From an uncultured Gemmataceae bacterium (GTDB taxonomy: Bacteria; Planctomycetota; Planctomycetia; Gemmatales; Gemmataceae): DNA of 64,000 nucleotides. The stretch spans positions 1,440,001 to 1,504,000 of the forward strand of contig CAVVPN010000011.1 of the NCBI GenBank assembly GCA_963750165.1, read 5' to 3'. The translations under genes and the position numbers were made by a program. A model generated the notes under the pieces. That model ran no database searches and was not told the origin of the DNA. It saw nothing but the letters and a program-made list of their open reading frames with translations. The number at the start of each line of letters is the position of its first letter. Position 1 is the stretch's first letter. Below are positions 30,986 to 37,658 of this stretch, in pieces.

Positions 30986-31084
30986 CGATCTTCCTCCTTG
31001 GACCAACCGGGACTCCGGGCGCGGCAACGACGCTCTCCTGGGGACGAATCATACCCGAAATCTTCACGCGCACCCAGCCCTTGT

Positions 31085-31168
31085 TGGCTCGGGGCGAGCG
31101 GCGCGGCGTCAGCCCGCCGGTAATCCAAAACACCGGCGGGCTGACGCCGCGCCGCTCGCCCCGAGCCA
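31085..31168. repeat. REP-like palindrome, 37-bp arms (same family as 135-202)
   Basis: Identical 29-bp core arms, different loop. Confidence 0.9.
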
Positions 31169-31253
31169 GGTTTTCATTTGCCCTGCGCCGCCGCTTGCAG
31201 TTTCATGAAGCGAGACGTGCGCCCGCTCCACCCCACAAGCCATGAGGTCCACC

Positions 31254-32165
31254 ATGCAACTCGGTTTCGTGAGTGCCATCCTGCCCGACCTGAACCTGGC
31301 CGACGTGCTCGCCGTCGCCGCCGACGAGGGTTTCGCCTGTGTCGAGTTGATGTGCTGGCCGCCCGGCGCCGCCGACCGCCGTTACGCCGGCGTCACCCAC
31401 CTCGACGTAACCCGCCTGGATGACGCCGAGGTGGCCCGGGTGCGCGGCCTGGTCGAAAAAACCGGCGTCGCTATCAGCGGCCTGGGCTACTACCCGAACC
31501 CGCTGCACCCCGATGCCAACCACCGTCGCACGGTCATCGAGCACCTGCACAAGGTCATCGACGCGGCCCCGCGGTTGGGCGTCGGTGTCGTCAACACCTT
31601 CGTCGGCCGCGACCCGGCCAAAAATGTGCCCGCCAACCTGGAACTGACGCGGCAGGTGTGGCCGGACCTTCTTCGCCACGCCGAGCGTGCGAACGTCAAG
31701 ATCGGCATCGAGAACTGTCCGATGCTGTTCAGCTACGACGAGTGGCCGGGCGGCGCCAACCTGTTCGTGTCGCCGGCGCTCTGGCGGACGCTGTTCGCGG
31801 AGTTCCCGAGTCCGCACTGGGGCCTGAATTTCGACCCGTCGCACCTGGTCTGGCAGCACATCGACTGCGCCCGCTGCCTGCGCGAGTTCGGCGGCCGCCT
31901 GGTCCACGTCCACGCCAAGGACGAGCGCGTTCACCCCGACCGGCTGTACGAGCAGGGCATCCTGGGGCTGGGCTGGCACACGCCAAAGCTGCCCGGCCTG
32001 GGCGACGTGGACTGGGGGGCCTTCTTCGCGGCGCTGACCGACACGGGCTACAGCGGCCCGGTGTGCGTCGAGGTCGAGGACCGGGCGTATGAGGGATCGC
32101 TGGCGGATCGCCAACGGGCGCTGCGGCAAAGTCGCGACTTCCTGAAGCAGTTTCTGGGGTGCTAG
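31254..32165 (+). CDS. Sugar phosphate isomerase/epimerase (xylose isomerase-like TIM barrel)
   Basis: GIENCPM, GLNFDPSH, HVHAKD, PGLGDVDW, VEVED. Confidence 0.9.
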   Translation: MQLGFVSAILPDLNLADVLAVAADEGFACVELMCWPPGAADRRYAGVTHLDVTRLDDAEVARVRGLVEKTGVAISGLGYYPNPLHPDANHRRTVIEHLHKVIDAAPRLGVGVVNTFVGRDPAKNVPANLELTRQVWPDLLRHAERANVKIGIENCPMLFSYDEWPGGANLFVSPALWRTLFAEFPSPHWGLNFDPSHLVWQHIDCARCLREFGGRLVHVHAKDERVHPDRLYEQGILGLGWHTPKLPGLGDVDWGAFFAALTDTGYSGPVCVEVEDRAYEGSLADRQRALRQSRDFLKQFLGC

Positions 32166-32248
32166 AGCGGTTCGCAGTTGGGTGTAACGGAAGTCGCCAG
32201 ACTTCCGTCCGGTGTTGCTCGGAAGTCTGGCGACTTCCGCTACACCCA
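32163..32248. repeat. TAGAGCGGTTC end followed by a GTAG-type REP doublet
   Basis: TAGAGCGGTTCGCAG at the gene stop, then TGGGTGTAACGGAAGTCGCCAGACTTCCG / CGGAAGTCTGGCGACTTCCGCTACACCCA. Confidence 0.8.
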
Positions 32249-32284
32249 TTCGCAATCTGCAATAGCGGTACGCGGTGAGCGCTT

Positions 32285-35284
32285 TCATGGGTCCTCCCGC
32301 GTAACCCATTGCACACGGTAGGGAACCTGCACAAGGGCGGCGATCGCATCCTGGGCGTCCTTTTGCGCCTCCGTAGCGGTGCGGCCCTGGACCCGGCATT
32401 TGACGGCGACAAAGCGCCTGCCTTGCTCGCGGTACACCTTGATCGCTCCTGGCTGCAGGAACGGACCTTTGGGGTCCGGCCGGCCATCCGCTCCCATTGG
32501 CGTGACCAGGTCCTTGAGTATGAGACGCGGCAGTGCTGAGCTGAACAAGGGCACCGAGGTACCGACCGTTGCGGGCGCCTGACTGCCGCCAGTCCACGGT
32601 GTCTGCGACGTTGCGGGCTGCATTCCCTGGGAAATGTTGTTATTGATGAGGTCCACCGGGATTTCCAGAATGGAATCCTCGGGCCCGCGTTTCCGGAAGG
32701 GCAAGCGCACCACGATATCATAGCCCTTTTCGCCCTCGCTCATCTGGGTGGCAAGCTCGCCATCCACGACGGCCCGGATGAAGGCGGTCACGTCAGCAAC
32801 CTTAAGGCCGTAGCGCCGGCACTTTTCCCCATCGACCACAAACTTCAGGTCGCGCGGGCCAGAACCCGAAAACAGGCGCACCTGAGCAACGCCCTTGATC
32901 TCACCCAACGTCTGCTTGACCTTGTCAGCCACGCTTGCGAGCACGGCCAGATCGGGCCCGAACACCTTCACCACCAGCTCGTCCCTGGCAGGTGAAAACG
33001 GGCTCGTCTCGGCAGCGCCGGTCAATGAAGTGCTCCACAACGTGCCGGCAAGCTGGCGCTCGAGCCCTTTCCGGACGGCGTGCATCAACTCCGGCAGCGT
33101 CCGCGGGCGGTCGAGACCGGCGGCGTTGAGCCACTCCCTGGCCGGCTTGAGGACGACACAGAGTTCGGCGGATTCCTCGGGCGGCGGCTCACCGTCGATG
33201 GCCGCGCCGATGTGCGCGACGCACGCCTGGACCTCGCCCAGTTCGCGGATGAACTTGCGGGCGGACTGCACCAACTCGGCGGCCCTGACCCGGCCGGTGT
33301 TCGGCGGGAAGCTGCCGCACAGGTAAAATCGATCTCCCAGTGGGCACGGCTCGATCTTGACTCCTGGCAACAGCCGCCCGGCCGCTGCGTTGATTTCCTT
33401 GACCCTGGCCAGGATCTTCGCCTGTGCTGCGGACACGTCGGCGTTCTTGCGGACCAGGATGATCCCTTCCACCACGTCATCGGCGCTGCGCCACGGTTTT
33501 TTCGCTGCCGCCGGTGCCTGATCGACGCTAACCCGGCCCAGGCGGGCTCGGTGGCCGACAATCACGCCCTGGCGACCTGGTGCTTCCTCGAACGGCAGCG
33601 GTCCGCCATCGACGATGTCGTCGATACGAACCGGCACGTTGTTGACCGAGGTGATGACAATGGCGCGGATCGCGTTGAGGCGCTTGCGGTCCTCGGCGCG
33701 GAGGAAGGCCGCGGCTTTCTGCGGCGTCTGCATGGCGAAGGCCCGCTCCATCGGGTCCTTGCCGCCGCCGATGACGACGCCGCCGCGGACCCTCTGCGCG
33801 GTCCGGCCCTGAGTCAGGTGGTCGCCGCCGACGTTGGCGTTGCTGTTGGCCAGCGCGTTTGTTAGCTGCCCCAGCGTGATGCCGTAGCGCTTCATGCGCT
33901 CCGGGTCGGGGTGGATCTCGTAGCGCTTGACCGCGCCGCTGGCCGTCAGCACCTCGGCCACCTCCGGCAGCCGGCGAAACTCCCGCTCCAGGATATACTC
34001 CTGGAGCGCGCGCAGGTCAGACAGCGTGTAAATGTCATTGCCCAGGACATCCCGTGGGCCCGTCACCGCGTAGCGCAGGACCTCGACGGTCATTTGCCGG
34101 CTCGGCGTTAGCCCCGGCGTGACACCCGGGGGCAAAGCCGGCGCCTGACTGAGCCGTTTGATCACCTCCTGTCGGGCGTCGGCGTAATCGGTGGCGTCAT
34201 CGAAGTGAAGCTCGATACTCGCCAGGCCGAACTGGGAGCGGCTGATCGTCGTTTTGAGCCCGCGTATTCCCGCCAGGGCCACTTCCAGGTTGACAGTCAC
34301 CAGCCGCTCGACTTCCTCGGCAGAGGCGCCAGGGTAAGACGCCTCGACCAGCAACACCGGCCGCGGCGCCGGCTCCGCCGGGGGCGTGGTGGTGGTCGCG
34401 GCGGACATTTCCGGCAGCGGCCGCGGCGCGAAATGGTGCGTCACGGCCGCCGCCAAAACGCCACAGCACACCAGCAGCACCGCGGCAGCCGTTTTCAGCC
34501 GTGCGAAGGATAAATGGCGGAGCGTGCCTTCGACCAGAGCCGCCACGGACACGGACGCTGCCGCCGCCACGGTGGCACCCTTGACGACCAGGACCGCGGC
34601 CTTGAGCGTGCTCTGCCCCAGCGCGAACGGCACCGCAGTCGCTTCGTGCTCGGCCAGCACCGTGCCCAGGCCGGCCGCCGACAGCGTGATGCCGCGCCGG
34701 CTCAAGCGGCCCCGGAGCAGCTCGCGGGCTCGAGCGAGCCGGCCGGACACCGTCCCCTTGGTCCAGCCCAGCTCCCGCGCCGCCTCTTCCTGGGTCTTGC
34801 CCTGCAGGTAGCAAAGCAAGATCGGCGCCTGATACTTCTGAGGCAGTCGATGCAACTCCTCGTCCAGGACTGGGCGGAGATCGCACCAAACGCCAGCGCC
34901 GGTAGCCTCTCTCGGGGACATGGCCGCGCTCCTTGTTTCGACCTCGCGGCGTCGGGCCGCGTCCCCCCGCACCTTGAGGGCGATGTGGTAGGCGACGGTA
35001 AACAGCCAGCTCGCCAGGGAGCCGCGCTTCCTCAGCGAAGCCGCCTTGCGCACCAGCACCAGGAAAGTCGCCTGAAACGCATCGTCCGCCTCGTGGGCAT
35101 CCGCCAGCACTCGCCGGCACACCCCAAGCACCAGGGGCCCATGCCGCGCCAGGAGCCCCTCAAACGCCGTCTCATCGTGCTGCGTCGTAAACCGCTCGAG
35201 AAGCTGGCCGTCGGCCAGGTCCCCGGTCGGCGGCGTGCCGATCACTCTGTGGAGCCAGGTCATGATGTTGTCGAGTTGCTTCAT
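32285..35284 (-). CDS. ECF sigma factor fused through one TM helix to CzcA/CusA-type RND periplasmic domains
   Basis: Sigma2 DAFQATFLVLVRKA, sigma4 GTVSGRLARAR; then YPGASAEEVERLVT, ALANSNANVGG, VVKVFGPDL, REQGRRFVAVKC. Confidence 0.85.
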   Translation of the reverse strand: MKQLDNIMTWLHRVIGTPPTGDLADGQLLERFTTQHDETAFEGLLARHGPLVLGVCRRVLADAHEADDAFQATFLVLVRKAASLRKRGSLASWLFTVAYHIALKVRGDAARRREVETRSAAMSPREATGAGVWCDLRPVLDEELHRLPQKYQAPILLCYLQGKTQEEAARELGWTKGTVSGRLARARELLRGRLSRRGITLSAAGLGTVLAEHEATAVPFALGQSTLKAAVLVVKGATVAAAASVSVAALVEGTLRHLSFARLKTAAAVLLVCCGVLAAAVTHHFAPRPLPEMSAATTTTPPAEPAPRPVLLVEASYPGASAEEVERLVTVNLEVALAGIRGLKTTISRSQFGLASIELHFDDATDYADARQEVIKRLSQAPALPPGVTPGLTPSRQMTVEVLRYAVTGPRDVLGNDIYTLSDLRALQEYILEREFRRLPEVAEVLTASGAVKRYEIHPDPERMKRYGITLGQLTNALANSNANVGGDHLTQGRTAQRVRGGVVIGGGKDPMERAFAMQTPQKAAAFLRAEDRKRLNAIRAIVITSVNNVPVRIDDIVDGGPLPFEEAPGRQGVIVGHRARLGRVSVDQAPAAAKKPWRSADDVVEGIILVRKNADVSAAQAKILARVKEINAAAGRLLPGVKIEPCPLGDRFYLCGSFPPNTGRVRAAELVQSARKFIRELGEVQACVAHIGAAIDGEPPPEESAELCVVLKPAREWLNAAGLDRPRTLPELMHAVRKGLERQLAGTLWSTSLTGAAETSPFSPARDELVVKVFGPDLAVLASVADKVKQTLGEIKGVAQVRLFSGSGPRDLKFVVDGEKCRRYGLKVADVTAFIRAVVDGELATQMSEGEKGYDIVVRLPFRKRGPEDSILEIPVDLINNNISQGMQPATSQTPWTGGSQAPATVGTSVPLFSSALPRLILKDLVTPMGADGRPDPKGPFLQPGAIKVYREQGRRFVAVKCRVQGRTATEAQKDAQDAIAALVQVPYRVQWVTREDP

Positions 35285-35640
35285 GGCGATCTTCCCTGCG
35301 TACGTGGATGCCGCTCGTCTCATGAATAGAGCTAGCAGGCTCCCGGGCGAATACAGTTTTTTCAAAAAATGGGCGCGTTCACAGGATGCACCGAACGAAA
35401 ACACCAAATGACCGTGCGTGTTCCGGCTGCGACCCTGGCCACCGGGGACCGAAAATGGCGCCAAAATGGGAAAGGCATCGTCTCACTTCGCTCGACCTGC
35501 TCCACAGCCTCACCGAAGCAGATCTGCGCGCGGCCCTCGACGCCAACGGGCGGTTGTCCGGATGAACCGTGTCCCGCCCTGGGCTCCCGTGGGAATTGAG
35601 GCCGTTTCTGCTAAACATTTGCCTGACTGGTATCTGCTGC

Positions 35641-35928
35641 CAGCGCGGTTCGCAGTCGCGTGGCCCACAAACGGCAGGCCGGTGCAGCAAGGGCGCCGCA
35701 TCTCGACGTATGAAAAAGTTGGCGTTCTTGGCGTCCTTGCTGTGGCAACCGCCGCCGCTGGTGGTCGCGCCGTGCCAGCCGCACGGGGCCAGGGCGCCGA
35801 ATCTCGACGTGTGAAAAAGTTGGCCCCCTTGGCCTCCTTGGCCCCCTTGCTGCGACAGCGCAGGCCCCTGCTGGTCAAGCTGTGCCCGCCGTCCCACCGC
35901 GTGCGCGATCCGCGTGTGAACCGCTCTA
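35641..35928. mobile_element. Non-autonomous TAGAGCGGTTC-family element with two TCTCGAC-(9-mer)n modules
   Basis: AGCGCGGTTCGCAG...GAACCGCTCTA; near-identical to 46174-46468. Confidence 0.75.
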
Positions 35929-37048
35929 AGTTGACCCCTTCGCGGCCGTGAACTCACGCACCGTCGTGACTCGGTGCTCCTGGGCCGCGGCGTAGACCGC
36001 CTCGCACAGCGCGATCGTTTCCAGGTTGTCCCGTCCGCTGATCTCCGGTTCGGTGCCGTCCTCCAGCGCACACAGCAGCTGGGCCATTGTGCCGACGAAC
36101 GCATCGGGAAACCACACGTCCGGCCAGCGCGGCTGCAGCCAGTAGCCGGGCTGCCGCTTCGTCGTGAAGTCCAGCGTGCTCGGCGTCTTCGCGGGGTAGC
36201 TCGGCCAGCCGATGGTGCCGCGCGCAACCCGTCCGTGCCCTCGACGCGCCAGCGGATGTAGATGTCGCTTTCGCTGCCCTCGCGCGCCGGCCCGGTCCAC
36301 ACGTCGTCCCAGCTGGTCGCCCGGCAACCGCGGTCGTACTCCAGGATGTACAGGTTGATGCCATCCCGGTGCGGGAATTTGGTGCGCGGGTCGGGCCGCG
36401 TGCTGGCCAGGACGCGGTCGGGCGTGCCGAACCAGTAGCGAAACGTGTCCAGGTGGTGAATGCTCATCACGAACGTGGACAGCGAAGGCAATTTTTCGCT
36501 CCACGGCATCCAGTGCGGGATGGCGCGCATTTCAATGGTGCCGAGCACCGGCTCGCCCAGCCAGCCGCGCTGCAGCATGTCCTTCAGGGCGCGCACGGAC
36601 TGGTCGTAGCGCATGTTCTGGTTGACCGCCAGCGTCACGCCCGCCCGGCGCAGCGCTCGACGCAGTCGCGCGCCTCGCGGTAGCTCATCGCCAGCGGCTT
36701 CTGGGCGAGGATGCCGCGCAGGTTGCTCTTGTGCTCCAGCGCCTGGCGGATCATCTCCGGCTGCAGGTCCGGCGGCACGGCGATGTCGAGCACCTCAACG
36801 CTCTCGTCGCGCAACAGGTCGGTGACAGTGGTATGACACTTCGCGATGCCGTGCTGCTGGGCGACGGCCTGGGCGCGCTCGGGGTTGCGCGAGGCGATGG
36901 CGAGGGGGTTGAAGCCGGCCTGGCGGTAGGCGACCAGGTGGCAGTCGCGCATGATGAAACCGGCGCCGAGGCAGCCGATGCGAAAGTCCTTGCGGCGCGG
37001 CAGGCGCGGCCGGTAGTCGAGGGTCAGGTCGAGCGCGGCGTGCGGCAT
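35926..37048 (-). CDS. Gfo/Idh/MocA oxidoreductase, frameshifts near 36645 and 36225
   Basis: [35 protein letters not shown]. Confidence 0.88.
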
Positions 37049-37055
37049 GGGGATC

Positions 37056-37658
37056 TCAACGGCGGGGATCGATGATGAGTTCAAAGCCGGGCAGCAGTTT
37101 GGTGGTGAAGGTGTCGCCGAAAGCGTATTCACGGACCACCCAGCGCTTGCCGTGGCGGCGGCGCTGCGTCAGCGTCGGCCGGCTGGCGTCGGCGCGGTTG
37201 TCGAGAATCCAGTACTCCTTGATGCTGGGCACCTGGAAATACAATTCGACGTTGCGCACCAAATCTTTGTTGGGATCGTCGGCGGAAAGGACCTCGGCAA
37301 CCAGGATGGGGCTCACTTCATCCCAGGCCACGTCCTCCAGGGGAGTATCTATCGAGAAATTCCGGTACGCGGCGACGTCCGGTTCGGGGATGGTGGTGTC
37401 CGGGTCGTCGGCAATCAGCACCCGGGCACCAAAGGTGGCGTAATTGATGACCTCGGGATGTTCGCGCTTGTAAAAGACCAGCGCCTCATACAACCACACT
37501 TCCAAACGGTTCTGCGGACAGTTCGGTTTAGGGGAAACGTAGAGTTTCCCGTCGATGATTTCGTATTGGTATCCTTCTTCGTAGTCGCCCTTCTCGAATT
37601 CCTCCCACGTCAGGGCCCGGCCATGATCGCTCGGCCCCAATTTCGTCACCGTAGCCAT
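37056..37658 (-). CDS. Uma2-family endonuclease
   Basis: YEIIDGKLYVSP, PEPDVA, VAEVLS, IKEYWILD. Confidence 0.9.
   Translation of the reverse strand: MATVTKLGPSDHGRALTWEEFEKGDYEEGYQYEIIDGKLYVSPKPNCPQNRLEVWLYEALVFYKREHPEVINYATFGARVLIADDPDTTIPEPDVAAYRNFSIDTPLEDVAWDEVSPILVAEVLSADDPNKDLVRNVELYFQVPSIKEYWILDNRADASRPTLTQRRRHGKRWVVREYAFGDTFTTKLLPGFELIIDPRR

Follow-up and report, generated by a model that had tools for sequence, protein, structure and literature searches.

An ECF57-type sigma factor fused to a CzcA-type efflux-pump head devoid of transport helices in an uncultured Gemmataceae bacterium

Introduction

Why should a sigma factor carry the head of a metal efflux pump? This question is raised by a gene found in a stretch of 64,000 nucleotides (nt) of an uncultured Gemmataceae bacterium (assembly GCA_963750165.1, contig CAVVPN010000011.1, positions 1,440,001 to 1,504,000), which we call the window. 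The gene codes for a protein of 999 amino acids, P0001, in which an extracytoplasmic function (ECF) sigma factor is followed by a predicted membrane helix and by the two periplasmic loops of a resistance-nodulation-division (RND) pump. P0001 is to be filed as an ECF57-type sigma factor, not as an RND permease. We have asked whether the fusion is genuine, where its head comes from and what it might be used for.

Architecture of the fusion protein

A first-pass annotation, made from the letters alone, had described a single open frame joining sigma regions 2 and 4, a transmembrane (TM) helix and both CzcA-type loops. The frame itself, Pfam, phmmer and alignments confirm this description. The ATG start matches the N-terminus of P0129, the closest sigma relative. 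In RND permeases, TM2-7 lie between the periplasmic loops and TM8-12 follow the second loop. Alignment with full-length pumps shows that both blocks are missing at domain boundaries, as had been proposed: the loops join after LLPGVKIEP (residue 646), the second loop runs from about residue 650, and the C-terminus falls where TM8 would begin. The proton-relay motif of TM4 is absent, because it sits within the deleted block. ACR_tran is matched in two stretches (Pfam, E 5e-55), and the best NCBIfam model is TIGR00914 CzcA/CusA, with 228 bits against a cut-off of 701. In phmmer, residues 311-500 correspond to CusA 54-239 and residues 622-877 to CusA 552-795. The span between loops is 7-21 amino acids long in all 74 heads of this type that we have collected, as against 238-270 in 37 of 37 pumps. 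Without TM2-12 and the proton-relay motif, with another segment in place of its native TM1 and with an eroded metal site, P0001 cannot pump. The subdomain names used below (PN, PC, DN and DC) and their borders follow AcrB and CusA, and were placed by motif.

Hydropathy gives a doubtful segment at residues 229-247 (score 1.84) and a strong one at 263-281 (score 2.25). Of the 120 proteins scanned, 101 have 11-12 such segments, as against one or two here, and each of the seven other fusions scanned has a single one. In the AlphaFold model 229-247 is broken into short helices, 245-284 is one long helix, and basic residues precede residue 263. For these reasons, the single membrane helix that the annotation expected is likely, with the head predicted to lie outside.

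The sigma part has regions 2 and 4 only. As in ECF57, there is a conserved Cys pair, Cys56 in region 2 and Cys158 in region 4, and a C-terminal extension with a membrane helix. The available text of PMC7826278 gives ECF57 proteins a Cys in both regions and about two membrane helices on average in the extension, and proposes that they are released from the membrane. P0001 also resembles them in the absence of conserved neighbours. On the other hand, the extensions described in the portions of PMC7826278 and PMC8999054 at hand are WD40 or homeodomain-like, and an RND head is not named there; the latter source suggests that the members with WD40 interact with proteins. Named relatives of the sigma part belong to Planctomycetota, those of the head to Gemmataceae and their kin.

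Recurrence of the fusion

The same architecture is found in at least ten other proteins, which gives 11 CzcA-head sigma fusions in all. Besides P0001, seven are among the best 120 of 1382 matches, two come from further listed matches and one from a profile search. P0001 is not an assembly chimera, since the design recurs in these ten proteins. Several other genes of this assembly have frameshifts, and the exact sigma-head pairing of P0001 rests on one assembly, where it was seen once. Nevertheless, a chimera or a decaying pseudogene is extremely improbable: neither junction region has a second copy in the genome (the nearest paralogous DNA is 71-75% identical over at least 140 nt), the frame is open, codon-position GC is similar across all parts of the gene, and selection is purifying. 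The doubts that the annotation had raised against itself are thus answered: additional membrane helices are unlikely, and we find neither a chimera nor decay of the RND part.

A contiguous CzcA-type head was detected in at least 4 of 251 genomes of the family, a lower bound because four candidates were scored per genome; it is fused to a sigma factor in one, that of P0001. A scan of genome contigs with the whole of P0001 gave 12 loci, all matching the sigma part only, and a metagenome scan gave 78 loci, one of them a TM-less head. A junction query of 171 amino acids, run against 61 relatives and 252 family genomes, gave no new contiguous head beyond that of genome G094, and is insensitive, since it missed those of G112 and G120. 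P0002, P0130 and P0131 may form a tandem array, as all three lie on contigs of the same length, 45918.

Stand-alone heads

To collect heads, 1.84 billion representatives were searched with a profile, and 51 of the best 150 matches passed a whole-head filter. The set of 74 heads consists of these filtered matches, minus P0397 (a whole pump) and P0327 (a duplicate of the G120 head), plus earlier matches; L047, a near-duplicate of P0005, was left out of later head counts, and P0056 and P0095 were treated as broken pumps. Among the matches listed, 56 heads stand alone, 11 are sigma-fused and 7 have an unknown start. The stand-alone heads have a short N-terminal leader, nearly always hydrophobic. 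Their status was confirmed in DNA for four of them and rests on protein calls for the others. Examples are P0310-P0367 and the heads of G094, G112 and G120 (L017, L045, L046), N-terminally anchored proteins of CzcA type which are often labelled CusA.

Our trees come from quick searches and include only pumps close to the query. The heads are separated from the 37 sampled pumps by a branch with support 100, and the 11 fusions fall in three separate head clades (starred in the tree), among stand-alone heads. When two distant outgroups are included, a single origin of CzcA heads has a support of 48: one or two origins are both compatible. The annotation had supposed that the helices were removed for this fusion. 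This is most likely not the case, because 56 of the 74 heads stand alone and the 11 fusions nest among them. As far as such trees can tell, the helices were most likely lost before the sigma fusion, in a larger family of stand-alone heads.

Heads of this kind might keep their stand-alone job in the fusions, as a scaffold for adaptors or as an inactive subunit which tunes pumps, the sigma factor being a passenger. The numbers (56 stand-alone heads, 11 fusions) point in this direction, and some stand-alone heads nest among fused ones, maybe through sigma loss. We consider this quite unlikely for P0001: sigma regions 2 and 4, the Cys pair and the linker are intact, with 72% identity to P0129 over 295 amino acids.

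Two further types of protein should be mentioned. In P0400, a CzcB-like adaptor is joined to a CzcA-type head which lacks the TM helices and whose start is incomplete; we have counted this protein in favour of a docking role. P0135, P0153, P0199, P0355, P0364 and P0368 are half-heads: PN1 is apparently joined to PC2-DC, only PN2-DN-PC1 is present, or PC1 is skipped.

Exchange of heads between sigma lineages

In the genome which contains P0001 the design occurs a second time, independently and with AcrB-type heads (C4:88807-94319), and 15 fusions with AcrB-type heads from other records are found among the best 120 matches listed. The surrounding region (G000:C4:86871-94319) contains three tandem ECF57-type genes, two with TM-less AcrB-type heads, one of these frameshifted, and one with WD40.

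CzcA heads are found on at least three lineages of the sigma tree. The sigma part of P0001 is sister to that of P0129, which bears an AcrB head (support 99/94), and its head is sister to that of P0002 (support 98). Identities per 30 amino acids between P0001 and P0129 are 15-27 up to the segment 301-330 and 1-11 afterwards; between P0001 and P0002 they are 8-20 before the switch and 15-25 after it. The switch falls within the first PN1 strand, which is common to both RND subfamilies. From these sequences, P0001 looks like a recombinant, with a sigma part from an AcrB-head lineage and a crossover near residue 325. Recombination at the start of PN1 would be the simplest account of the switch in similarity.

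ECF57-type genes of this genome have other tails as well. In the 21 frames scanned we have found WD40 (4 cases), cytochrome c peroxidase, DUF1501, leucine-rich repeats, a weak match to an outer-membrane efflux protein and unnamed tails; the di-haem cytochrome c peroxidase domain, DUF1501 and the weak efflux protein match correspond to loci L133, L136 and L126. Such diversity would be expected if ECF57 sigma factors captured any anchored periplasmic protein: the head would then be a near-neutral passenger or a generic fuse, with fast turnover, which signals nothing specific, or its own misfolding under envelope stress. Fortuitous capture has been proposed for planctomycete sigma extensions by Pinto and da Fonseca (PMC7671368, in the sections available). 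The fusions are also rare, each a one-member cluster where clusters are shown, and the young tandem pair with AcrB heads has nonsynonymous to synonymous rate ratios (dN/dS) of 0.7-0.8. On the other hand, the 11 CzcA-head fusions, about 40-55% identical, keep a whole in-frame head, RND heads of two subfamilies have been captured repeatedly, and, within one sigma lineage, one class of head has given way to another at an exact position. We regard such a passenger or fuse as possible, although rather unlikely.

Fold, selection and metal site of the head

The AlphaFold model of residues 306-999 has a mean local confidence (pLDDT) of 86 and a predicted TM-score (pTM) of 0.83. Low confidence is confined to the DN arm, one PC1 loop and an insertion in DC. 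In the structural comparison that the annotation had recommended, made with Foldseek, CusA and ZneA come first, followed by AcrBper entries, with target TM-scores of 0.78-0.80. The head is predicted to fold like CusA, ZneA and the engineered AcrBper.

The comparison of coding sequences that the annotation had also recommended indicates that selection on the head is purifying. Relative to L047, the nearest head with DNA, dN/dS (Nei-Gojobori) is 0.36 in the first loop, 0.37 in PC1 and 0.26 in the rest. Control pairs of whole pumps (26 of 41 pumps) have medians of 0.26-0.52, and a neutral simulation gave 1.0-1.2, with 9-18 stops.

The metal site is a different case. We have numbered the proximal ligands of ZneA by counting along the alignment (136, 602, 610, 654 and 658), the first one presumably being at 136. 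The ligands are E, D, E, D and D, four of them within two motifs printed in the accessible part of PMC7060636. All five positions are acidic in 34 of the 37 pumps, in 2 of the 74 heads and in none of the 11 sigma fusions. P0001 keeps acidic residues at three of the five, 136, 602 (in a loop one residue shorter) and 610, with further acidic residues in the same loop. The pump-conserved positions which are lost in heads cluster in the metal-site loops. With the assumed borders, conservation in heads relative to pumps is 0.73-0.80 in DN, PN2 and DC and lowest, 0.51, in PC1, which three stand-alone members skip entirely. A Cys pair in PC1 (688/709) is present in 10 of 28 heads and in none of the 37 pumps, but it belongs to a single clade and we have not counted it as evidence.

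The head could nevertheless bind a metal or a small molecule in a remodelled PN2/PC1 pocket, the sigma factor inducing efflux genes. The acidic residues kept by P0001 would agree with this, AcrBper binds substrates without a membrane domain (PMC8617272), the half-heads P0153 and P0199 keep the pocket half, and the fast change of PC1 could correspond to diversifying specificity. We find a ligand sensor doubtful, in view of the counts given above, of the clustering of lost residues in the site loops, of the members without PC1 and of the low confidence of the site loop in the model. The idea that a pump head forms part of a tethered sigma factor stands, the head being complete, under selection and tethered to the membrane. 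Of the two cues that the annotation proposed, a metal bound at the canonical site is the weaker, because the substrate site is the eroded part. Sensing of efflux-complex assembly would fit better.

Sigma part, linker and promoter

The AlphaFold model of the sigma part and linker (pLDDT 90, pTM 0.82) has a root-mean-square deviation of 8-14 Å to sigma factors bound to anti-sigmas and of 22-29 Å to those bound to polymerase. The CnrH-CnrY structure 4cxf is among the solved structures compared, and none of the matches covers linker residues 204-262. Protease families M50 (RseP-type) and Prc are present in the genome, as in most control genomes. ECF sigma factors have been recovered from detergent fractions of Tuwongella, according to the available part of PMC8567305.

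A pattern formed by an A-tract and GTAT is found at 8 sites genome-wide, 4 of them before ECF57-type genes, from which the pattern was derived. The word GAAAAAA precedes 10 of the 22 ECF57-type genes of the genome, as against 0.26 expected from its genome-wide frequency, an estimate which ignores intergenic A+T richness; it is possibly a promoter element. At the P0001 locus there is no sigma70 promoter consensus, terminators are at chance level, and no Rfam match is found in positions 31000-37000 of the window.

Possible mechanism

We propose, with a probability of roughly 0.4, that P0001 is a tethered ECF57-type sigma factor whose head is a docking bait for efflux parts, and which is released by proteolysis. 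A docking bait is likelier than a metal sensor because there is a large stand-alone family of motorless heads with an eroded metal site. The trees suggest that anchored stand-alone heads came first, that sigma factors captured them, and that recombination within the conserved first part of PN1 exchanged heads among sigma lineages. The head would adopt an AcrBper-like fold in the periplasm, and helices of the linker are predicted to keep sigma regions 2 and 4 in a closed state. Binding or loss of an adaptor or pump subunit would alter the accessibility of the head to a periplasmic protease, after which an RseP-type protease would free the sigma factor, by analogy with IutY. Support is good for the architecture and its history, but not for the mechanism.

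Several observations weigh against a docking bait. No efflux or adaptor gene is found among the annotated neighbours of P0001, nor a pump gene near the two stand-alone heads for which flanking genes were listed, and the A-tract and GTAT motif was not found before the czc operon. CzcA-head fusions are rare in the family (1 of 251 genomes, a lower bound), and ECF57-type genes of this genome have many unrelated tails. The DN arm interlocks protomers in RND trimers; it is deleted in 17 heads, including 4 of the 11 sigma fusions. The pocket half which is all that some AcrB-type fusions (P0153, P0199) keep would suit ligand binding, and the conservation of docking subdomains may reflect fold constraint alone. 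The closed model of the sigma part is a close match to no solved sigma factor, and AlphaFold may compact any free sigma factor. As to selection, three deeper head pairs have dN/dS of 0.34-0.71, highest in PC1, and the tandem AcrB-head pair has 0.71-0.82 in both sigma and head; selection after the fusion is not isolated, because the path between P0001 and L047 includes stand-alone history.

A wider suggestion, which we consider improbable, is that natural motorless RND heads form a family in Gemmataceae and are decoys or scaffolds in efflux assembly, and that ECF57 sigma factors use heads of metal and drug pumps as interchangeable baits, swapped at the start of PN1, which convert the state of a pump class, or an attack on it, into transcription.

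Comparison with known systems

In the CnrH-CnrY-CnrX system an ECF sigma factor reads a periplasmic cue and controls an RND metal pump. Three proteins take part, one of them a dedicated sensor, and their genes lie next to that of the pump. P0001 is instead a single protein, derived from a pump, with no pump nearby. The tail of IutY, from Pseudomonas putida, is a FecR-type anti-sigma. In IutY (ECF243), too, a sigma factor is joined across the membrane to a periplasmic part, and in the available text of PMC8999054 it is the one tested fused sigma factor, freed by Prc and RseP. It belongs to another ECF group: P0001 works like IutY at most, and we claim no membership.

The pumps themselves, CzcA, ZneA and CusA (TIGR00914; PDB 4k0e, 3ne5), have both periplasmic loops in the same order and the same predicted fold, and the first loop of P0001 is 58% identical to that of the genome's own CzcA-like pump. 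The differences are those given above, from the loss of TM2-12 and of the proton-relay motif to the replaced TM1 and the eroded site. The closest design is AcrBper (PDB 5en5, 7b8r), an engineered fusion of two AcrB loops through a short linker, trimeric and soluble (PMC8617272). P0001, in contrast, is natural, belongs to the metal-pump subfamily, is anchored in the membrane and is fused to a sigma factor.

We have found no description of an architecture with sigma factor and RND head in the literature, subscription journals being beyond the scope of this search and a supplementary listing remaining possible. What appears to be new is an independent family of CzcA-type heads, its eroded metal site and a located head swap. 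Nature has made the AcrBper design at least twice, in the metal and drug subfamilies, under selection and mostly as anchored stand-alone proteins mislabelled CusA. ECF57 is a planctomycete group with many members, none of which is named as tested in the portions of PMC7826278 and PMC8999054 available; P0001 offers a tractable case on which to study it. Whether the tail of P0001 is a specific sensor or an accidental capture can be tested directly, because the tail fold and candidate partners are known. The head swap that we have located, from one pump subfamily to another, illustrates how new sensors could be put together.

Coordinates and neighbouring sequences

The features of the gene are collected in Table 1.

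Table 1. Features of the P0001 gene and its upstream region (positions in the window; aa, amino acids).
Feature	Positions	Strand	Basis or remark
Whole gene (P0001, 999 aa): ECF57-type sigma fused to TM-less CzcA-type RND head	32285..35284	-	single open frame
Sigma region 2, aa 44-104, including Cys56	34973..35155	-	Pfam sigma70_r2
Sigma region 4, aa 140-190, including Cys158	34715..34867	-	Pfam sigma70_r4_2
Conserved helical linker beside the membrane, aa 201-262 (putative built-in anti-sigma part)	34499..34684	-	consensus and confident model helices
Predicted single TM helix, aa 263-284, N-in/C-out	34433..34498	-	hydropathy scan and AlphaFold
Probable crossover zone, aa about 308-325, first PN1 strand	34310..34363	-	similarity switch from P0129 to P0002
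First periplasmic loop PN1-PN2-DN-PN2, aa 309-646	33347..34360	-	alignment, structure model
DN arm, aa about 482-507, present in P0001	33764..33841	-	sequence alignment
Loop-to-loop junction in place of TM2-7, aa 647-649	33338..33346	-	alignment; adjoining blocks with pLDDT of at least 82
Second periplasmic loop PC1-PC2-DC-PC2, aa 650-993, with remodelled metal-site loops and no TM8-12	32306..33337	-	alignment
Promoter-like A-tract and GTAT word	35350..35363	-	also precedes three other ECF57-type genes of the genome

The genes next to P0001 code for a TIM barrel resembling isomerases and for a Gfo/Idh oxidoreductase. The upstream gene, a Gfo/Idh/MocA oxidoreductase (35926-37132 of the window), is apparently spread over several frames. 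Elsewhere in the genome, a czcB-czcA-like pair (G000:C12:858056-863220, L002) has its czcA split near the 3' end by a frameshift, possibly a sequencing error. Two repeated elements flank P0001. A REP-like inverted repeat of 47 nt is found between convergent genes at 32161-32266, with similar DNA at 108 places in the genome. The other is an intergenic element at 35681-35855 which contains a 53-nt direct repeat; it has no Rfam match, and similar DNA is found at 198 places in the genome.

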